Source: Planctomycetota bacterium (GTDB lineage Bacteria > Planctomycetota > UBA1135). From it: a stretch of 64,000 bases of DNA. Below are positions 55-61,084 of the stretch, piece by piece (positions within the stretch are counted from its first letter, which is position 1; each line of letters starts with the position of its first letter). The position numbers were made by a program, and so were the translations under genes. Under the pieces are notes generated by a model. It searched no databases, was not told the origin of the DNA, and was given only the letters and a program-made list of their open reading frames with translations. Where the stretch lies: positions 180 through 64,179 of the forward strand of contig JASMMA010000014.1 in assembly GCA_030748415.1 (NCBI GenBank). Direction: 5' to 3'.

Positions 55-1356
55 ATGGTTGCCACCAGCCTCGCTCTCGCGCTTCTTGCGGCAGTACTAC
101 CTGCTCAAAATACTGGAGATAAATTCCATGTGGGGGACTCCTCCCCCTCGTTGATGCTACTGGAGCAATTGGGAAACCGAGGTGTTCCCGCTGGACAACG
201 GCAAGAGATTTGGAGTCGATTGGCTGATGCAGGGGGACCGCTTCCATTTGGGGACGTGTCCTCATTGCGGTCTGATGTGCGTGCTTCTTGGCTCCCTGAC
301 TATGTTCGCTGCTTGGGTCGTACTTCCCATGAGGCGGTTCCTCTGCTGGAGCGATACTTGGATTCTCATCTTGCACCAATCCGTGCGGAGGCCATCTTTG
401 CTATCCCGCAGCTGGGCGGGTCGGGCGGTGTGAATATTGCACTGAGGGTGTTGCGTGATTCCGAAGAAGAGAACATAGTGCGAGTTGCAGCATTGCGTGG
501 ATTGTCTAGAGCCGGGTCACCATTCTCTCGTGTTGAGGCGGCGCGGCGACTCAAAACTGCGGAGGGTCCCTTGCTTCTTGAAGCAGTTGCCACTTTGGCT
601 TCGCGGCCCAACCCCAGCGACATTCCCTACTTGATTCCTCTTATTCAAAGGGCACCCAATTCGCGTGCCGCAGGCGAGGCGGTTCTTCTTCTGCAGAAAC
701 TTACCGGATATCGCATCGGGCGAGATGCGCGAACCTGGACATACTGGATGCGCCGATACCAAATTGAAGGGAAAGCATTTTGGCGAGAGCCTCAACCGGG
801 CGAAGGAGACTTAAAAACTTTGACCTACTTGGGGATCCCTATTCTTGGAGATAGGGTTGTTTTTGTATTGGACTCTTCTGGCTCAATGGCCTCTCCAATG
901 CAAGAACGAGCCCCTCTCACGCGTGGCGAGTTTGCAGTCCAGGCTCTAAACGAGTTGATTCCTCGCTTACCTGAGACGGCACTCTTTTCACTCTCTTTTT
1001 TCGAAGAAAAAGTCTACGCGCTTTCTCGAGGTCTGGTTTCCCGTACACCTCAAGGGTTAAGCACTGCAAAGCAGTGGCTTCGTTCTCGCCGTTTCTCTGG
1101 CGGAACAAATCTATTTGGTGGGCTCGAGCGGGCATTTGAGTTTGATGGCGTCGAGGAAATCATTCTCCTGAGCGACGGGGCTCCCTCTGCAGGAGATGTC
1201 CTCATCCCATCCAAAATCCTCTCTAAGATTCGAAGGCTAAATCGCTGGCGACGGATTCGGGTGAGTTCGATTGGGATTGGTGTAGGAACGAGCGAGCGAA
1301 CATTCCTTGCTCAACTGGCCGAAGAAAACCAGGGTGACATCCAATTCCACCATTAG
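55..1356 (+). CDS. Secreted HEAT-repeat + vWA domain protein
   Basis: Signal peptide; HEAT-like repeats (IRAEAIFAI, VRVAALRGL) ending in ARTWTYW; vWA MIDAS motif VFVLDSSGSM plus GGTNL and ILLSDGAP. Confidence 0.85.
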   Translation: MVATSLALALLAAVLPAQNTGDKFHVGDSSPSLMLLEQLGNRGVPAGQRQEIWSRLADAGGPLPFGDVSSLRSDVRASWLPDYVRCLGRTSHEAVPLLERYLDSHLAPIRAEAIFAIPQLGGSGGVNIALRVLRDSEEENIVRVAALRGLSRAGSPFSRVEAARRLKTAEGPLLLEAVATLASRPNPSDIPYLIPLIQRAPNSRAAGEAVLLLQKLTGYRIGRDARTWTYWMRRYQIEGKAFWREPQPGEGDLKTLTYLGIPILGDRVVFVLDSSGSMASPMQERAPLTRGEFAVQALNELIPRLPETALFSLSFFEEKVYALSRGLVSRTPQGLSTAKQWLRSRRFSGGTNLFGGLERAFEFDGVEEIILLSDGAPSAGDVLIPSKILSKIRRLNRWRRIRVSSIGIGVGTSERTFLAQLAEENQGDIQFHH

Positions 1357-1365
1357 AATGCTTTC

Positions 1366-2409
1366 ATGAGAGCAGTTCGCGTTCATGAACATGGTGGTGA
1401 GAGAGTTCTTCTTCTTGAAGAGCTTCCCATTCCAGAACCAGGCCCAGGGGAGGTGCGGATTCGAGTTGCTTGGTGTGCCCTCAACCATTTGGACACCTGG
1501 GTTCGGCGAGGTGTACCTGGACACCGGTTCCCCCTTCCATTAATCCCGGGTTGCGACTTCAGCGGGGTGATTGATTCTTGTGCTTCTGATGTGACCGATT
1601 GGCCCCAAGGAACCCGCGTTTGCGTGAACCCGGGCCTTTTCTGTGGGAGTTGTTCTTGCTGCATGGCTGACAATCAGCATCTATGTCGAGGCTTTGGAAT
1701 CTATGGTGAAACGACCCATGGCGGAAATGCTGAATTCGCAGTCGTAAAAGCTGAGAATCTTCTTCAGGTTCCAGATTCATTCCCATTGGACAAAGCAGCC
1801 GCCTTTCCCCTTACTTATTTAACTGCCTGGCGGATGTTAGTGGGAAGGTGCCAGATTCGTGAAGGGGAAAAGGTTCTCATTCATGCAGCGGGTTCCGGAG
1901 TATCTGTTGCAGCAACTCAAATTGCTCGCCACTTTGGTGCAAGAGTCATGGTGACTGCAGGAACTGATGAAAAAGTAGAAAAGGGAATCGCAAATGGTGC
2001 CGAGGCCGGTTGCAACTACCAAACCGAGGACTGGAAAAAGTTTGCCAAGGAATGGGCAGGCGGGTCCAACTTGGACATTATTGTGGACCATGTGGGCATG
2101 GACACGATTCCGGCGGGCATTTGGTTGCTTGCCAAAGGCGGGCGCCTCGTTACTTGCGGAGTGACATCTGGCGCAGAGATGAATCTCCACCTTGCCCCAG
2201 TTTTCTTTAAGTCGCTATCGATTCTGGGTTCCACTATGGGGACCCCGAGAGATCTTTCAAATGCGGCAGAACTCATCTGGACTGGCCAGCTGAGCCCTGT
2301 CCTTGATTCTTCCTTTTTAATGGCAAATGTCCAAGAGGCCCACCGCAGGATGGGAGAAAGGGCAGTCTTTGGAAAGATACTGCTCGAAGTCGACAGCAGC
2401 CTCGGCTGA
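1366..2409 (+). CDS. Zinc-binding alcohol dehydrogenase / MDR family oxidoreductase
   Basis: Structural Zn motif CGSCSCC..C; PLIPGCDFSG; HAAGSGV nucleotide-binding loop; C-terminal FGKILL. Confidence 0.9.
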   Translation: MRAVRVHEHGGERVLLLEELPIPEPGPGEVRIRVAWCALNHLDTWVRRGVPGHRFPLPLIPGCDFSGVIDSCASDVTDWPQGTRVCVNPGLFCGSCSCCMADNQHLCRGFGIYGETTHGGNAEFAVVKAENLLQVPDSFPLDKAAAFPLTYLTAWRMLVGRCQIREGEKVLIHAAGSGVSVAATQIARHFGARVMVTAGTDEKVEKGIANGAEAGCNYQTEDWKKFAKEWAGGSNLDIIVDHVGMDTIPAGIWLLAKGGRLVTCGVTSGAEMNLHLAPVFFKSLSILGSTMGTPRDLSNAAELIWTGQLSPVLDSSFLMANVQEAHRRMGERAVFGKILLEVDSSLG

Positions 2410-2422
2410 GCCTACCCTCAGG

Positions 2423-3190
2423 ATGAACTCTAACCCGATACCACCCATGATTAGTACCGTCGCACTCGCTTTCTTTCCCGCCGCCCTTTTCGCACAAGAA
2501 GCTCCCGCCGTCAAAGTGGAGCCCCGAACCGAGCTCGAGTTTGCCCAAGTTGCGACTTGGCCCGGCTCCAAAACCTCTCAGACATTGCTCGGGGTCGGCG
2601 TGCGCGATAAGACCTTTCTACGAGTCAAAGTTTATGCGCTTGGGCTCTATGTGGATCCTGTTGGCGCCGCCAAAGCTTTGGACAAGTGGCAGGAAACCTC
2701 TGTAAAAAAGATGCAGAAAGACAACAAGTTTTATGATGCTTTGCTGAATGGAAAATTTAGCAAGACCATGCGTTGGGTCTTTGTGCGTGATGTCGATGGT
2801 GAAGATATTGCCGAAGCTTTTGAAGATTCTCTCGAGCCACGCTTGAAAACTCTTGCTAAGAATGAGAAAGGAAAGAAGGGCTCCGAGGCGAGAGCCGCTG
2901 CTGCAAAAACGGGCCTCAAGACCTTGAAGTCGTGGTTTACCGAAGAAATTGAAGATGGCCAGGAACTTGTTTTTGCGTGGCACCCTGGCGGAAAGTTGAT
3001 TGTTCAGCTAGAGGGGAAGCTAATCGGGGAACTTACTTCGGAGCATGTATCTACTGCCCTGTTTGATACAGCAATTGGTGAGGACACCGTTGCCGAAGAT
3101 GCGCGAGAAGATTTCCCCACAGGAGTCTCCATGATGTTCGAGATTGCGTCCCAGAGGCTTCATGTGAAGAAGGGCCCTCCGGAGAAGTAA
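2423..3190 (+). CDS. Secreted chalcone isomerase-like fold protein
   Basis: LLGVGVRDKTFLRVKVYALGLY is typical of the CHI-like family; signal peptide ending LFA-Q; start 2423 or 2447. Confidence 0.75.
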   Translation: MNSNPIPPMISTVALAFFPAALFAQEAPAVKVEPRTELEFAQVATWPGSKTSQTLLGVGVRDKTFLRVKVYALGLYVDPVGAAKALDKWQETSVKKMQKDNKFYDALLNGKFSKTMRWVFVRDVDGEDIAEAFEDSLEPRLKTLAKNEKGKKGSEARAAAAKTGLKTLKSWFTEEIEDGQELVFAWHPGGKLIVQLEGKLIGELTSEHVSTALFDTAIGEDTVAEDAREDFPTGVSMMFEIASQRLHVKKGPPEK

Positions 3191-6037: not shown

Positions 6038-7275
6038 TAACCTCCGAAGTCATCCAAGAAGATATCTTCGCGCTCCACTCCAAGGTTTACAAGCATGTCA
6101 ATGACCGCCTTGTTCATCATGGGTGGACCACACATGTAGTATTGGCAGTCTTCAGGAGCGGGATGATCTTTGAGGTAGTTCTCTAGCAGCACCTGATGAA
6201 TGAACCCGGTTGGGCCAGACCAGTTATCTTCAGGGAGGGGGTTATCCAGGGCCAAGTTCCACTCAAAGTTTTCAAAATCGCGGGCGATACCGTCGAAATC
6301 CTCAATGTAGAAAGCCTCTCGTAAAGAGCGGGCGCCGTACCAGAAGCTGACCCTGCGCTTCGACTCCTTCATCGTGCGGAAAAGGTGCATCAGATGGGAG
6401 CGCATTGGGGCCATGCCCGCGCCGCCTCCAATGAAGACCATTTCACGATCGTTGTCTTTGAGGAAAAACTCACCATAAGGACCAGAAATCGTGACCAGGT
6501 CACCAGGCTTCTGGGCAAAAATGTAGGAAGAGCCTTTCCCCGGAGGAATCCCTTCAGGGCCACGAGGTGGGGGAGAAGCAATCCGAACATTTAGCATGAT
6601 CCGGTTCCCTTCAGCCGGGTAACTCGCCATGGAGTAGGCGCGTTCACAAGGCTCGTCAGTGACCGAGTGATAACGCCACATGTCGAACTTGTCCCAATCT
6701 TCGCGATACTCATCTTCAATGACATAGTCCGCATATTTGACATCGTGTTCAGGGATTTCAATCTGAATGTAGCCCCCTGATTTGTAGTCAATACTTTCCC
6801 CTTCGGGTAGTTGCACCACAAACTCTTTAATGAAGGTGGCCACATTGTTGTTGGAGATGACTTCGCACTCCCATTTCTTTACGGAGAAGATTTCGGGCTC
6901 CACTTCGATGGCCATGTCTTCTTTCACCTTGACCTGGCAAGCAAGCCTCCAGCTTTCTTTGGCGTCGCCACGAGAAATGTGCCCTTCTTCAGTGGGCAAA
7001 AGGTCGCCGCCGCCATCGTGCACTTGCACGCGGCACTGGCCACATGTGCCACCGCCCCCGCAAGCAGAAGGAATGAATAGTTTTTGCTCTGAAAGAGTCG
7101 TCAGGAGGGTGTTTCCGGCCAAACAAGACATGGCCTTGTCGTTGTCCTCGTTCACCGTAATAGTAACGGGGCCGGATTGGACCAGTTTTCCTTTTGCCCA
7201 AAGAAGGAGGGCAATCATTGCCATGACAACGATAGAGAACATGAGAACGCCGAGTCCGATGGTGTTGTAGTCCAT
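6037..7275 (-). CDS. nqrF: Na+-translocating NADH:quinone reductase subunit F
   Basis: [12 protein letters not shown] 2Fe-2S motif, [22 protein letters not shown]-terminal DDFGG. Confidence 0.98.
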
Positions 7276-8526: not shown

Positions 8527-9284
8527 TATTGGGCCCCCTTCTGTGCTGTGATGAAGGGGCCGTAGCCATCTTCTCCAAACCAAAGGGCAATCATGTGTCC
8601 AACAGCGCGACTGGTAATGGTGGCGCCAGAAAGTCCATCCACCTCGTGGGTGGAATCTTTGACTTGGCCTTTCTTCACCACAGTAAGAAGTGGCGTGTCA
8701 CCTTGAGGGTCAATGAGTTTCCCATTCCAGAGCGCTTTCCACTTTGGATTGTCCACTTCGCCACCAAGCCCCGGGGTTTCGCCGTGAGCGTAGTAGGTGA
8801 TTCCTTTTACGGTGTTCAGGTCAGGTTCAATGGAGATGTATCCATAAAGAGTGGACCAGAGTCCGTTCCCCCAAATGGGAAGAATCCAGCACTCTTTTCC
8901 CGCAGCTGTGACTTGGTAAACCTCAAGAGTGTTCGGGAGGCTTGAAACCCGAGCGAGATTGGAGAGACCCACCTCAGCTTGGTCGGGATCTTTGGCCGCC
9001 TTCACGACATCGTAGGTTCCAAAATCAATTTCCCCTTGAATAGCGCCAGATTTGCGATTCACTTGGAATGTTTTGATTTTCCCGAATAGTTGGGTCACCT
9101 CTTCTCTTGAAACAGATGAGTTTTCTGAAAGGCCGGCGACCACCAAAATGTTCCGCTGCTTGTCGAGTCGTTGGTTTTCGATTTGCCGGTCTTTCAGGCC
9201 AACGGCAAAACTAGAAACAACCAGCGAACAGACGAGGCAAACGAGAAGGGCAAAGCCAGCGGTGTACTTGTTACTGAACTCCAC
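8526..9284 (-). CDS. nqrC: Na+-NQR subunit C
   Basis: [21 protein letters not shown]-attachment motif DGLSGATIT. Confidence 0.97.
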
Positions 9285-30854: not shown

Positions 30855-31634
30855 TTATCGGTTTTTAAGCGCCTGAAAGGAAAGTCGGGCAACTATCGAG
30901 CGGGGGAAAAATCGAGTTATCCAAGTCAGGAAAAAGTTGTGCCCACCATGCACAAAACTGATTCGTTTTCCCAGAAGGCGGAAACTTTGCTCCACAACAT
31001 CTTCGGGACTCGCTGTGCCGCCGGCAACAGATCCTTGAACACCGGCAACGCCATGGAATTCAGTATCCGTGTGGCCGGGGGAGACCACAAGAACATCCAC
31101 CCCGTGAGTTCGCATTTCCATGGCAAGGGATTCTCCCAAAAGAAGGTCAAACCCTTTGGTTGCTCCATACACCGACATAGGAGGCGTGGGCAAGTAGGCG
31201 GCAGCGCTTGCAAGGACTACCATTCCGCCGCGTTTTCTTTGGGCCATTGGCGCCAAGAGCAGGCGACTTAATCGAGCTGGAGCTTCACAGTTCAAGCGGA
31301 TCATTTTTGAGATGTTGGAATCTTTTTGATGAAGAAAGGGGGCCAGGTAACCAAAGCCAGCGTTGTTTATGAAGAGTCCAATCTCCAGCCCCTGGGTCTT
31401 CTCTTCCAAAGTGTCCACGGCAGAATCTAAAGTTAAATCTAGGGGAATACAAAGGGTGGAAATGCCATGATTGGACTCTAGTTCTTCAGCTAGTTCTTGA
31501 AGTCGCTCCTCGCGGCGGGCAACCAGCACAAGGTTGAGGCCCATTTTTGCCATAGCCTTTGCATAACTAGCGCCAAGGCCAGCGGAGGCGCCGGTAATCA
31601 AGCCCCACGGACCATACTTTTTTTGGAATCCCAT
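30855..31634 (-). CDS. SDR family oxidoreductase
   Basis: TGASAGLG, NNAG, YGATK, PGHTDT. Confidence 0.93.
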   Translation of the reverse strand: MGFQKKYGPWGLITGASAGLGASYAKAMAKMGLNLVLVARREERLQELAEELESNHGISTLCIPLDLTLDSAVDTLEEKTQGLEIGLFINNAGFGYLAPFLHQKDSNISKMIRLNCEAPARLSRLLLAPMAQRKRGGMVVLASAAAYLPTPPMSVYGATKGFDLLLGESLAMEMRTHGVDVLVVSPGHTDTEFHGVAGVQGSVAGGTASPEDVVEQSFRLLGKRISFVHGGHNFFLTWITRFFPRSIVARLSFQALKNR

Positions 31635-31666
31635 GGAAGAATCATACTCATCCCCATAAAGAGTAA

Positions 31667-31696
31667 GAGCGCCACACCCCCCCAGGCGCAGCGCTC
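31667..31696 (-). terminator. Strong hairpin, probable terminator of the upstream structured RNA
   Basis: Minus strand GAGCGCUGCGCC/GGUGUGGCGCUC 12-bp stem (three G-U pairs) followed by UUACUCUUUAU. Confidence 0.55.
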
Positions 31697-31697
31697 A

Positions 31698-31823
31698 TTT
31701 CCCTCTTCATATCCCCGGAGAACCGGGTGAGCCATCCTCAGGCTCACACCCATGCTTACGAGCAAAAGCACCAAGCGTAGGTGTTTCTTTCAACGGCTTT
31801 TTGACGAGGGACTTGAGGGGAAA
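31698..31823 (-). ncRNA. Candidate structured ncRNA, 6S RNA-like
   Basis: Hand-folded: end-to-end closing stem, purine-rich 5' bubble, 3' bubble hairpin GAGCC/GGCUC, terminal stem ACACCUA/UGGGUGU; shorter than typical 6S RNA. Confidence 0.4.
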
Positions 31824-31853
31824 CTTCCAAAAAAGGGAAAAGCACCCCTCTTA

Positions 31854-32019
31854 GACACTGACCCGATCGGCTGGGTCACTCCCCGGGATAAGTTCATTCA
31901 GGCAAAGGACCTAGAGAAGAAAAAAGCTCACGGGCTAGGCCTATTCCCTTTTTCCTTCCTAAAGCCATATTGAACCAAGACTTGGAAAGAGAGGTGACCC
32001 AGCCGATCGGGTCAGTGTC
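31854..32019. repeat. 166-bp inverted-repeat element (MITE/REPIN-like), copy A
   Basis: Perfect 26-bp TIRs GACACTGACCCGATCGGCTGGGTCAC (28 bp with flanking TA); each TIR is itself a TGACCC/GGGTCA hairpin. Confidence 0.85.
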
Positions 32020-32022
32020 TAG

Positions 32023-33285
32023 TTAGCGGATTAGAAGTGATACGTAGTTGGACATTTCCCGCTCTCTTGGCAGGAAGACCTGGATGTGGAGGCGTTTCCC
32101 TATGAGGTGGGGGTTATAGGGAACCGTAAGGATGACATTCGTTTCGCCATTGGGGCCGAGTCTTCCTCGCCGCCATTGAGCCGAATTGAGGTCCACGTGA
32201 GAGGTTCGAACATCACCCGGCCATAGAGTAGATAGGGGGGTGGGGGATTGGACTAGCGATGCGGCAACCAGAACTGATTGATGGGCCCAACTCTTCAATG
32301 CACGAATTTTGATTTGGGTAGGATTGCCTACGCCAACGGAAGAATCACAATTCACCCAAAGGAACGGGATTTTGCAAAGGTCCCTTGGGTAACCAATAGG
32401 GTTACTGTTTGCTAAACCGTCATCCAAATCCCAGAGCAGGCGCCACGGTGCCGCCCCACCAGGGGGAACCATGATGATGGAGCTGTCCCAGGAGTCAGCA
32501 ACGGCCATGAAGCCATATCGGAGAGGGATGACATCTACTGGGTGCTCTAGCAGGCCACCCCATGCAATTTGGTTCATGGTTCCATCCCTGAACACTCGGA
32601 CTACCCCCATTCGATCCAGACCACCACCAACATTACCAAAACCATCGCTGACCAGGATTGACCCGTCATCATCAATACTTAGGCCTTGAGGTTTTGGGAG
32701 GATATTTATGTCAGTGGCAATAATGCTTCGGTTTCCAAGGCGATCGACTTTGTGAATAAAACCTGGTTGAGAACTTCCACCTAAATAGTTGGGTGGCTCG
32801 GAAACGATAAAGCCCCCGTCGTAGTCCAAGGCGATGCCAACAGAGGGGTCATAGGAGTAGGACGGGGGCGAGAACCACGACACCTGTCCGCTTGGATTAA
32901 TTTTTGCAAGTCCAGCAAAGCCATCTGCAACAATGAGATTGCCTTCAGTATCTCTACAAAACTTAAAGTTATCTTCTAGGGGTTGGATGTTGAGCTGGTA
33001 AGCAGAGTTGTTGGTGAAATCAATGCTCCAGATTCCATTGTTTGGACCCCATTGGCTCTGGTAGTTTGAAACTAGAAGAGAGCCGTCATTGTCAACAAGG
33101 ATGGCATCGGGATATGTGATGGGCGAAGGGAGGGTATATTGATTGGTTGAGCCATCTGGGTGAAGAATGCAAATCTTAGGAGAGGTATATGAATCACTTG
33201 GATCTGCTATCACGATATCTCCAGGAGAGAAGATTGAATTTTGGGGAAGTAGAGGTGCGAAAGAGAGTAGGAGAAGGGTGAACAT
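32023..33285 (-). CDS. Secreted beta-propeller (NHL/SMP-30-like) protein
   Basis: Signal peptide; repeated P-x-G/D-I-x-x-D-x-D-G-x-L/I-I/L-V-S/A-D blades; C-terminal beta-rich domain. Confidence 0.65.
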   Translation of the reverse strand: MFTLLLLSFAPLLPQNSIFSPGDIVIADPSDSYTSPKICILHPDGSTNQYTLPSPITYPDAILVDNDGSLLVSNYQSQWGPNNGIWSIDFTNNSAYQLNIQPLEDNFKFCRDTEGNLIVADGFAGLAKINPSGQVSWFSPPSYSYDPSVGIALDYDGGFIVSEPPNYLGGSSQPGFIHKVDRLGNRSIIATDINILPKPQGLSIDDDGSILVSDGFGNVGGGLDRMGVVRVFRDGTMNQIAWGGLLEHPVDVIPLRYGFMAVADSWDSSIIMVPPGGAAPWRLLWDLDDGLANSNPIGYPRDLCKIPFLWVNCDSSVGVGNPTQIKIRALKSWAHQSVLVAASLVQSPTPLSTLWPGDVRTSHVDLNSAQWRRGRLGPNGETNVILTVPYNPHLIGKRLHIQVFLPREREMSNYVSLLIR

Positions 33286-33412
33286 AGTGAATGGACGGTT
33301 GCAAATACCGTACCACGAAAGGGAAGGCCCGTGTTGGAGGTTAGCGTTTCCTTTTGGTAACGGTAGCCTCTTTAGGGAAGGTAATTTTTCTTCATTTCGT
33401 TAGATTGGAAGG

Positions 33413-59004: not shown

Positions 59005-59940
59005 ATGGTTCACAACGTTGCAATTATTGGTTCCGGTCCTGCCGGTTACACCGCTGCCCTCTACACCGCCCGCGCAGGGCTTTCCCCTCTTCTTTACGAA
59101 GGAATGCAACCTGGTGGCCAGCTAACCATTACGACTGAGGTTGAGAACTATCCCGGATTTCCTGAAGGTATTACGGGGCCCGATTTAATGGATAAGTTTA
59201 AGGCGCAGTGCGCTCGATTTGGGACCACCTTCAAGGAGTTTGCCAATGTGAAGCGGATCGATACATCGGGGCGCCCTTTTGTCATCGAAGATGAAATGGG
59301 TGGCGTTGAAGAAGCACATTCAATTATTGTTGCCACGGGTGCGCGGGCGAAAATGCTGGGGCTGGATAAGGAGAAAGAATTGATGGGATTTGGTGTTTCG
59401 GCATGCGCAACCTGTGACGGTGCCTTTTTTAAGGATGTTGAAATTGCCGTCGTCGGGGGGGGAGATACCGCCATGGAGGAAGCGCTCTACCTCACTCGGT
59501 TTGCTTCCAAAGTTACCATCATTCACCGCCGGGACTATTTCCGAGCCTCCAAGGTTATGCAAGCGCGTGCCGAGGAAAACCCGAACATTGCCCTGAAGCT
59601 TTTTCGGCAGGTGAAGGACATTCTCCATGGGGAAGATAAAAAGGTAACCGGCCTCGTACTTGAAGACCCGAGAGATGGTTCAACGGAAGAAATGTCCTGC
59701 CAAGGCCTCTTCATTGCCATTGGCCATGCTCCTAATACAGATTTCTTGGGAGAGGAATTTGCCAAAGACGAAGTGGGCTACCTGCTCCCGCAAGAGGGAA
59801 TGTCCACAAGCGTTGAGGGGATTTTTGCAGCGGGGGATGTGAGTGATTCGGTATACCGCCAGGCGATTACTGCAGCTGGAGCGGGATGCGCTGCTGCGAT
59901 TGCTGCGCAGCGGTGGCTTGAAGAGAAAGGAATCGAATAA
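59005..59940 (+). CDS. trxB: Thioredoxin reductase
   Basis: IIGSGPAG, GGQL, VENYPGF, CATCDG, GGGDTA, HRRD, AAGDV..YRQA. Confidence 0.97.
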   Translation: MVHNVAIIGSGPAGYTAALYTARAGLSPLLYEGMQPGGQLTITTEVENYPGFPEGITGPDLMDKFKAQCARFGTTFKEFANVKRIDTSGRPFVIEDEMGGVEEAHSIIVATGARAKMLGLDKEKELMGFGVSACATCDGAFFKDVEIAVVGGGDTAMEEALYLTRFASKVTIIHRRDYFRASKVMQARAEENPNIALKLFRQVKDILHGEDKKVTGLVLEDPRDGSTEEMSCQGLFIAIGHAPNTDFLGEEFAKDEVGYLLPQEGMSTSVEGIFAAGDVSDSVYRQAITAAGAGCAAAIAAQRWLEEKGIE

Positions 59941-60105
59941 GACACTGACCCTATCCGGTGGGTCACCCTTTTTTCTAAGTTGTTGTGCTGGAAATAATTC
60001 GGAACACTTTCTTGGCGGGGCTTAGGTCCTTACCGAAAAAAAGTCCTAAAACCCTATAAGAGCAAGCGTTATAAAGAAAGTGGCCCAGCCGATGGGGTCA
60101 GTGTC
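59941..60105. repeat. 165-bp inverted-repeat element, copy B
   Basis: Ends GACACTGACCCTATCCGGTGGGTCAC and GTGGCCCAGCCGATGGGGTCAGTGTC match the TIRs of copy A; same internal spacing. Confidence 0.85.
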
Positions 60106-61084
60106 CAAAGGGGTGGATTAATCCTGACCACGCAGCAGCTTCCCGTGCAAGTGCTCGCCCGTGCCTGATTTCTTCTCGCCGTGCGGCCGATTCCAGAAGA
60201 GCAGCGTGGTGGTTATCCAAAAGGGAGCCCAACTTTCGCCGTAAGGACTGGTCATCGCCAAATAAACAAGAAGCCCCAGGAAACTCCCTATGAGCGGGAA
60301 TATCAGTCGCGAGTATGGGCCTACCCATTAGGCCGGCCTCCAGTAGAGCATTCGGCGCGCCGCCCTCAGATTTGCTTGTTGAGAGAACTACCTGCGCTCG
60401 ACGAAAAAGGGGAGCCAACTGAGCTCTTGGAATTGGTCCGAGCCAAGTTGCAAAGGGGTGTGCTTGGCATAGATTGCGCACCTCTGTGGCAGTTTCCTGT
60501 TCCATCTCTTCCCCCAGTATCCAGAGCTGAAGGAGAGGGCGTCGAGCAACCATGGGGGCAAGAGCTGTAATCGCCCTCGCGGGGTCTTTAATGGACCGAA
60601 TCCCGGTAGGAAGAAGAATGAGCTCCGCGTCAGGGGGAAGGGCGCGGATAATTTCGGGCCTGGGGCCTGGGTGCTCAGGCAGGGGGGACACCGCTTGGGG
60701 AATGACGCTCACCTTGTCCCCGCAGTTTGGGAACAGGTCCCTCACTCGCCTGGCGGCCGCATTTCCCAATGTGACCAATACCTGTGCCTGGGCAACGACC
60801 TCTAGCTCTTCCTCTGAGGGCTGGCCATTGAGGTCTGTACCAGTAAACAGAATGATGACCGGAATGTTTTCCTTCTTCGCAATCGAGACAGCCGTCGGCC
60901 CAGACTTAAACGCATGAAGGGCGATAAGAAGTTCAAAACCATCCCCCTCAAAAGTGGTCCCCTCTGCAGCTTCCAGAGAAACCTCGTGCCCAGACCGTTC
61001 TAGGGCTGAGACTAGGCGTGCTGCAGTGGTGCTATTACCGCGGGGCGCACCGGGAGCGCACGGTAAGAGAATCCCAATCTTCAT
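60098..61084 (-). CDS. Glycosyltransferase, SenB/GLT1D1-like GT-B
   Basis: GNSTTAARL, LIALHAFKS, FTGTDL, IRSIKDP, SKSEGG.PNALLEA. Confidence 0.8.
   Translation of the reverse strand: MKIGILLPCAPGAPRGNSTTAARLVSALERSGHEVSLEAAEGTTFEGDGFELLIALHAFKSGPTAVSIAKKENIPVIILFTGTDLNGQPSEEELEVVAQAQVLVTLGNAAARRVRDLFPNCGDKVSVIPQAVSPLPEHPGPRPEIIRALPPDAELILLPTGIRSIKDPARAITALAPMVARRPLLQLWILGEEMEQETATEVRNLCQAHPFATWLGPIPRAQLAPLFRRAQVVLSTSKSEGGAPNALLEAGLMGRPILATDIPAHREFPGASCLFGDDQSLRRKLGSLLDNHHAALLESAARREEIRHGRALAREAAAWSGLIHPFGH

Follow-up and report, generated by a model that had tools for sequence, protein, structure and literature searches.

Palindromic elements of an uncultured marine planctomycete are probable MITEs that share terminal inverted repeats with putatively IS1-like insertion sequences

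The stretch of DNA analysed here (the window) comprises 64,000 nucleotides from an uncultured marine planctomycete and corresponds to G000:C5:180-64179, where G000 is the source genome, a 2.46-Mb, 68-contig assembly that is 90.6% complete and in which repeats may be unassembled. Within it lie two palindromic elements, and the positions, terminal inverted repeats (TIRs) and internal anchors that the original prediction had described for them were all recovered (Table 1). Copy A (31854-32019) is 166 bp long, and its arms pair perfectly over 28 nt when the flanking TA is included; the variable 9-mer within its TIRs occurs only twice in the genome, both times at its own ends. Copy B (59941-60105) is 165 bp long and has 26-nt TIRs. 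The TAA stop (59938-59940) of a 321-aa pyridine nucleotide-disulphide oxidoreductase ORF abuts its left TIR, and a 328-aa glycosyltransferase ORF on the minus strand (60098-61084) stops at a TGA (60098-60100) inside its right TIR. Bordered by both stops, copy B thus forms the entire spacer between two convergent genes. The window holds four occurrences of the 15-mer GACACTGACCCNATC at up to two mismatches, where 0.28 would be expected; none of 100 shuffles reached that count. Between the anchors the two copies are largely unrelated, as had been proposed, with a core identity of 0.55 against a shuffled baseline of 0.52. The core of copy A is 79-85% identical to five other cores. The whole window gave no match to Rfam at gathering thresholds, and the transposase-family profile matched nothing in it, in agreement with the earlier statement that it holds no transposase. 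An insertion sequence end with the same TIR (C5:141-165, minus strand) lies 15 nt before the first base of the window; contig C5 starts inside a copy of the element referred to below as IS-B (C5:1-165), the left end and transposase ORF start of which point away from the window.

Table 1. Coordinates of copies A and B in the window, and of two Y1 transposase gene loci elsewhere in the source genome
Feature	Position	Strand	Details
Copy A left TIR	31854..31879	+	GACACTGAC, variable 9-mer CCGATCGGC, TGGGTCAC; matches right TIR at 26/26 positions
Copy A core	31880..31993		114 nt
Copy A anchors, left half	TAAG 31889-31892; CTAG 31911-31914; A-tract 31920-31925		
Copy A central CTAG	31935-31938		T/A at exact centre
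Copy A anchors, right half	T-tract 31949-31953; CCTAAAG 31958-31964; CTTG 31981-31984		
Copy A right TIR	31994..32019	-	Stop of 420-aa minus-strand ORF (32023-32025) lies 3 nt outside
Copy B left TIR	59941..59966	+	Variable 9-mer CCTATCCGG
Copy B core	59967..60079		113 nt
Copy B anchors, left half	TAAG 59976-59979; TTCGG 59998-60002; central TTAG 60022-60025		TTCGG is a TTAGG variant
Copy B anchors, right half	A-tract ~60036-60042; CCTAAAA 60045-60051; TTAT 60069-60072		
Copy B right TIR	60080..60105	-	Variable 9-mer CCCATCGGC; 4 mismatches to left TIR
Y1 gene locus L097 (G000:C65)	1361-2355		Bracketing inverted repeat of 32 nt, perfect
Y1 gene locus L098 (G000:C3)	1346-2568		Bracketing inverted repeat of 45 nt, 96%

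These two copies belong to a larger family. A scripted search of the whole source genome for inverted pairs of GACACTGAC with at most one mismatch returned 39 pairs, 37 of which span 162-168 bp, the others measuring 154 and 192 bp; variable spacing without conserved internal modules, which would have spoken against the original prediction, was not seen. The single-TIR pattern GACNCTGAC-N9-TGGGTCA (at most one mismatch) has 111 sites in the source genome and 116 in G007, a genome from a different genus of the same family, against 0-3 sites in each of 39 other family genomes, and a reversed control pattern has none in either G000 or G007. We aligned 38 oriented copies over 168 columns (alignment A1), the 192-bp copy being excluded from all alignments. 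The TIR is 26 nt long in this alignment, with almost invariant blocks at positions 1-9 and 19-25 that enclose a variable 9-mer, and in 21 of the 38 copies the two TIRs differ at no more than one position. The cores are nearly random in sequence, yet total length and anchor positions are fixed, which bears out the proposal that geometry is conserved over sequence: median pairwise core identity is 0.58 and only 17 of 703 pairs reach 0.75, whereas A37, T59, T142 and G143 are invariant and A52, G61, A108, A109, T129 and T130 are kept in at least 90% of copies. Measured from either end, the family anchors are TAAG at about 36 nt and YTAGG at about 59 nt, and CCTAGG marks the centre. A TAA starts at position 35-37 in 40 of 76 arms and TAGR at 58-60 in 49 of 76; of the 27 arms carrying both, 25 have them 23 nt apart, and the central CTAG is present in 43 of 76 arm readings. 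The elements (154-192 bp) hold no conserved ORF. A three-frame stop-codon cassette was also considered and rejected, since one frame has no conserved stop; a conserved TGA (6-8) and TAA (36) share one frame in the 166-nt copies, and YTAG and the central CTAG share another (A1).

Single-stranded structure in the family is confined to the TIRs. Copy A folded in full gives -41.6 kcal/mol (z -7.7), a stability that stems from the TIRs; folded as single strands, the cores do no better than shuffled sequences (z +1.07 for copy A, +1.03 for copy B). The left arm matches the reverse-complemented right arm at 0.549 when both belong to one copy and at 0.543 when they belong to different copies, and RNAalifold on the 38 copies found no consensus structure except the TIR stem. 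Arm complementarity and fold z-scores together rule out that the core arms are a decayed palindrome or hairpin. Two structural details of the original prediction did not hold for the family. The covariation of an A-tract in one arm with a T-tract in the other applies to copies A and B only: with both arms read inward, the combinations are AA in 8 copies, TT in 3, TA in 5 and AT in 3, and 19 copies have no clear tract in at least one arm. The fixed location of an A/T run, whatever its polarity, suggests that it matters as a feature of the DNA duplex and not through pairing. The internal hairpin proposed for each TIR shows no covariation either, in that positions 10-12 vary against fixed positions 20-22 (G20 and G21 in 76 of 76 ends, G22 in 74 of 76), and one TIR class, ACAATC (hereafter class II), cannot form it at all.

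The elements of G007 share this architecture. The 16 that were fetched (L099-L114) are 164-166 or 174-177 nt long and carry the same anchors, and their cores are unrelated to those of the source genome (best identity 0.58-0.67). In eight of the 11 longer copies, about 10 nt are added in one arm between one TIR and the nearest TAAG; the remaining three (L102, L113 and L114) are long but lack a right-arm insert. A step of ~10 nt is about one helical turn, a length change compatible with a constraint on phasing. In L113 and L114 the core and the left flank are the same, and the right flanks differ.

The same TIR is found at the ends of much longer repeats in the source genome. Twenty-two contig termini and two internal places (C1:108465 and C44:456) start with it and continue into one of four long repeats, counted as five IS-A left, five IS-A right, seven IS-B left and seven IS-B right ends. 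From these equal counts, the left and right repeats would be the two ends of one element each, IS-A and IS-B. The 24 ends adjoin the N- and C-termini of a transposase: about 100 nt into the left ends stands the ATG of MSF(R/T)PPFCP..., and the right ends encode, on the other strand, the C-terminus ...ETPAMV.G...W.VA.LL.(W/F).FFR.P.F.TL, with a stop that overlaps the TIR. A profile search of the source genome yielded six transposase fragments, all at contig ends, and neither a complete IS-A nor a complete IS-B is assembled there. Class II TIRs occupy both ends of 10 of the 38 aligned elements, and the commonest of them, ACAATCGGC, is identical to the right-end TIR of IS-A over all 26 positions. 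Among the insertion sequence ends seen, none had exactly the TIR of copy A or that of copy B; between copy A and IS-A, 2 of 26 positions differ. Without exception, the seven left ends of IS-B (contig ends C5, C8, C9, C11, C44 and C55, and C44:456) carry a conserved extra ~13 nt outside the TIR-like sequence (GGCCCCCCACCAA or a close variant, with C8 and C11 differing in this stretch), which makes that IS-B end sub-terminal. Since the TIRs of the short elements match the ends of insertion sequences in the same genome, the elements are miniature inverted-repeat transposable elements (MITEs) on our reading. We consider it very probable that the family consists of MITE copies with at least two same-genome insertion sequences as partners, each with an IS1-like transposase of ~350 aa. 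The original prediction had contrasted the elements with a recently copied MITE, and its own refuting outcome, an ordinary MITE whose TIRs match the ends of a full-length insertion sequence, is borne out in its main part; the only target duplication found is TA/TA, at 10 of 39 copies. Compared by eye, the MITE cores show no similarity to the interiors or sub-terminal sequences of the insertion sequences, and the MITEs are therefore not simple deletion derivatives.

Relatives of the partner transposase occur as single ORFs of about 335-390 aa, with the full-length ones at 335-365 aa, in 21 of the 41 genomes surveyed from one planctomycete family, the nearest full-length one being a 348-aa protein of G007 that is 67% identical to the IS-A fragment. 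This protein has 496 homologues, mostly unnamed or annotated as 'transposase-like protein'. The closest full-length insertion sequences measured are 1.14-1.16 kb long. Eleven copies of such a unit were fetched from G012, another genome of the survey; they share 96-98% identity and have unrelated flanks, and their TIR is built in the same way, with GAAACTGGC, a variable stretch and TGGAGGT. Pfam assigned no transposase family to the transposase or its fragments, although weak helix-turn-helix (HTH) matches were seen. The NCBIfam model NF033558, 'IS1 family transposase', was matched by 24 of 25 homologues at E <=0.01 (best 3.9e-10), mainly over the N-terminal part, and is the sole NCBIfam match of the G007 relative. 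The first member scanned scored 29.4 bits against a cut-off of 100, and all 24 matching members fall below this cut-off. The alignment has invariant C8, C13, C43 and C46 (CPx3C ... Cx2C) and D130, D217 and D264. An AlphaFold model (pLDDT 84.8) placed the protein, by Foldseek, next to retroviral integrase cores and the Mos1 and ISCth4 transposases (best E 6.5e-5, probability 1.00, TM up to 0.72 on target). As modelled, the partner is a DDE-fold transposase in which a zinc ribbon and a predicted HTH accompany an RNase-H-like fold; as judged from its sequence, it is remotely IS1-like and lies outside the IS1 family by the NCBI threshold. Like members of that family (NF033558), it carries a zinc ribbon at the N-terminus, with an HTH next and then a catalytic domain that opens with a conserved ..LDE.E.. 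motif, all encoded in a short insertion sequence of ~1.1 kb with TIRs of ~25 nt. Unlike them, it is a single ORF without the InsA/InsB frameshift, it lacks a Pfam transposase model, and its score stays at 29 bits. IS1 proper makes an 8-9-bp target duplication, whereas no consistent duplication was present at the 11 G012 copies and none of 8-9 bp was found at these or at the MITEs.

The flanks of the elements carry a short insertion signature. Read into each end, they have Y at -3 (66/78), W at -2 (70/78) and R at -1 (76/78), and a C-rich stretch precedes this triplet, which most often is CTA (17), TAA (11), TAG (10), TTG (8), TTA (7) or CTG (6). A TA/TA direct repeat abuts 10 of 39 copies and is missing from 29, and nothing longer was found. 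Genes around the elements were called crudely, as ORFs of at least 120 aa, and on this basis 45 gene 3' ends lie beside elements: ten of their stops directly adjoin the element, four share 1 nt with it (TA+G) and five are the TGA of GACACTGA, and 35 of the 45 stops fall between -13 and +14 nt. Gene arrangement is convergent at 14 elements, tandem at 16 and divergent at six, with three unclassified. Insertion appears to prefer TA-containing sites (YTA/G, TAR/G), the tolerated ones in a gene-dense genome presumably being mostly stop codons. Contact with stop codons would thus follow from a TA-type target preference together with selection against insertions inside genes.

The survey of 41 genomes places abundant TIRs in only two, G000 and G007, which belong to different genera. 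G001, of the same genus as the source genome and ~74-76% identical to it, has three one-mismatch TIR sites and no transposase match. At the site orthologous to that of copy A, it has ~100 nt, with neither copy A nor the adjoining 420-aa NHL-repeat ORF. This place corresponds to window 31835-33305, in which the NHL-repeat ORF occupies 32023-33285 on the minus strand; no second TIR was found beyond this gene at up to three mismatches. Contigs of four metagenome runs from three other studies, examined over 31300-32600, cover the element and contain no empty-site allele, so transposition itself is unobserved. Apparent joints in the metagenome contigs at 31878/31992 are the TIRs of other copies. 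Elsewhere in the source genome (G000:C67:7101-8571), a 410-aa minus-strand ORF with a signal-peptide-like N-terminus has a degenerate element of 175 bp on one side (7101-7275) and a solo TIR in inverted orientation on the other (8547-8571), and this unit could be a composite, that is, MITE-flanked cargo.

Several of these observations might also be expected if the elements were host-maintained intergenic sites, serving as nucleoprotein or transcript-end elements, for example as hairpins at mRNA 3' ends or as sites bound by a nucleoid protein, with only a historical link to insertion sequences. Stop codons cluster at the element borders, 14 of the 36 copies that could be classified occupy the spacer of a convergent gene pair, the TIR blocks stay unchanged across 76 of 76 ends while the cores are near saturation, anchor spacing is fixed with a ~10-nt length step in G007, and the whole element folds well. 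We nevertheless regard this reading as improbable. Sites kept by the host are difficult to reconcile with abundance in only two of 41 genomes, near absence from a same-genus genome and the lack of copy A at the corresponding G001 site; insertion sequences present in several copies end in the same TIR; the stem is not followed by a U-tract; and the contact with stop codons is accounted for by target preference and selection, as set out above.

Transposition of MITEs in trans leaves one property of the family aside, namely that the two ends of a copy resemble each other more than they resemble the ends of other copies. TIR mismatches average 2.0 within a copy and 4.3 between copies, and 9 of the 24 stem pairs have changed on both sides among the 38 copies. 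Positions 10 and 11 are never asymmetric, the pairs being CG in 28 and AU in 10 copies at position 10, and CG in 32 and UA in six at position 11, with none broken. The same variable 9-mer stands at both ends in 18 of 38 copies against 7.5 expected when right ends are shuffled within TIR class, and none of 10,000 shuffles reached 18; in six copies, copy A among them, the 9-mer is unique in the genome to the copy's own two ends. Class II requires eight changes on the core tree, and its monophyly is rejected by the AU test at p = 5e-6, a value weakened by the fact that the group was defined after the alignment was seen. Neither these mirrored private variants nor the disagreement of TIR class with the core tree is explained by simple trans-mobilisation. 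It is implausible that every private variant has a transposase of its own, which implies that some step copies one end onto the other. One TIR might therefore template the other during a step that pairs or abuts both ends, such that new variants are mirrored at once, a proposal that we rate as unlikely. Candidate routes would be a template switch or the correction of mismatches where IRL and IRR abut in a circular copy-out intermediate, pairing of the ends in a lagging-strand fold-back, or quasipalindrome template switching (PMC7202029). Against purely mechanical end copying stands the asymmetry of positions 16 and 18, seen in 10 of 38 copies for each. If ends do template each other, a MITE would evolve like a REPIN, as a long-lived and diverse population with selection on geometry only, and could switch TIR class and with it switch among co-resident transposases.

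Mirrored arms also recall the REPINs themselves, which keep their length and show compensatory arm changes (PMC3116915), and a REPIN-like site was one of the readings put forward in the original prediction. On this reading, the elements would be mobilised as single-stranded hairpins by an HUH Y1 (RAYT/TIRYT) transposase, in the manner of REPINs or 'TIRtrons'. The TIRs beside some Y1 transposases share GGGGWSAS (PMC3733652), and the sequence GGGGTCAG at the ends of CCCC-type copies does fit this motif, so that the proposed likeness of the ends to GGGGWSAS-type repeats stands as far as the motif goes. The source genome also has two Y1_Tnp genes above the Pfam cut-off, and the two-sided changes in the TIR stem are of the compensatory type. 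The link to Y1 or RAYT enzymes, however, fails: both Y1 genes lie between inverted repeats of their own, unrelated to those of the elements (Table 1), and no GACNCTGAC-N9-TGGGTCA site with up to three mismatches lies in the 3.3-kb loci, within 1.5 kb of the genes. The TIR of the elements instead ends repeats that encode the predicted DDE-fold transposase, the cores form no hairpins, the whole doublet with its spacer does not fold as a REPIN does since pairing is confined to the TIRs, and there is no GTAG tag. Mobilisation by a Y1 enzyme is accordingly a very remote prospect. Both Y1 (IS200/RAYT-like) loci resemble the 'TIRtrons' described in PMC3733652 and have no relation to the elements.

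The elements and REPINs (PMC3116915) are alike in several ways: a palindromic doublet replicates, its length is conserved more than its spacer sequence, its arms change in a compensatory way, and the population is diverse, probably long-lived and without a recent burst. The differences are that there is no RAYT association or GTAG, that the ends are those of DDE-type insertion sequences, and that the spacer, here the 114-nt core, is unpaired. It is barely plausible that the elements are instead MITEs of a TA-targeting transposon of the IS630/Tc1-mariner type, despite the TA/TA flanks at 10 of 39 copies, the CTAG-like palindromic flank consensus and the presence of the Mos1 mariner transposase among the best fold matches of the partner, because 29 of 39 copies have no TA/TA, NF033545 has no match in the 90.6%-complete assembly, and the protein beside the TIR has a zinc ribbon and matches IS1, not IS630, in NCBIfam.

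The elements are thus best read as MITEs, most likely moved in trans by a transposase of the IS-A/IS-B type, and the non-coding family acted on in trans that was originally predicted is real as a family, its mobilisation in trans being the part reached by reasoning from the shared ends. In this mechanism the transposase would bind the bipartite TIR and mobilise the MITE in trans. Copy-out-paste-in would be the most likely route, favoured because IS1 proper is reported to form circles with abutted ends (bioRxiv 10.1101/2023.06.07.543989). To stay mobile, a lineage would have to retain its TIR blocks, overall length and sub-terminal anchors, and such a limit would explain how a conserved geometry coexists with nearly random cores. 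The anchors themselves may, tentatively, be where the transposition complex binds or bends the sub-terminal DNA. The elements resemble MITEs in being 100-300-bp, non-coding sequences with TIRs of ~26 nt, present in dozens of copies beside genes, with TA at part of the junctions, a strong single-stranded TIR stem and presumed mobilisation in trans. They differ in that the autonomous partner is visible in the same genome, and in their nearly unrelated cores (median 0.58), fixed length and anchors, and mirrored private TIR variants. New are the identity of the partner, the combination of strict geometry and near-random cores, and the mirroring of the ends; the kind of element is in itself ordinary. 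The family was not found in the literature on MITEs of IS1-like elements or of Planctomycetes and on compensatory TIR changes, which, ISfinder lying outside this search, leaves its absence there unproven.

For the Planctomycetota, the finding concerns first the partner, a large family of 496 homologues with no Pfam model; naming it would improve the annotation of marine members of the phylum and would account for many contig breaks. The elements also provide a clean natural data set on what a transposase needs beyond the TIRs, in length, phasing and anchors, and on the matching of two ends. If the ends of these MITEs are in fact copied from each other, this would be a mechanistic novelty for DDE elements.
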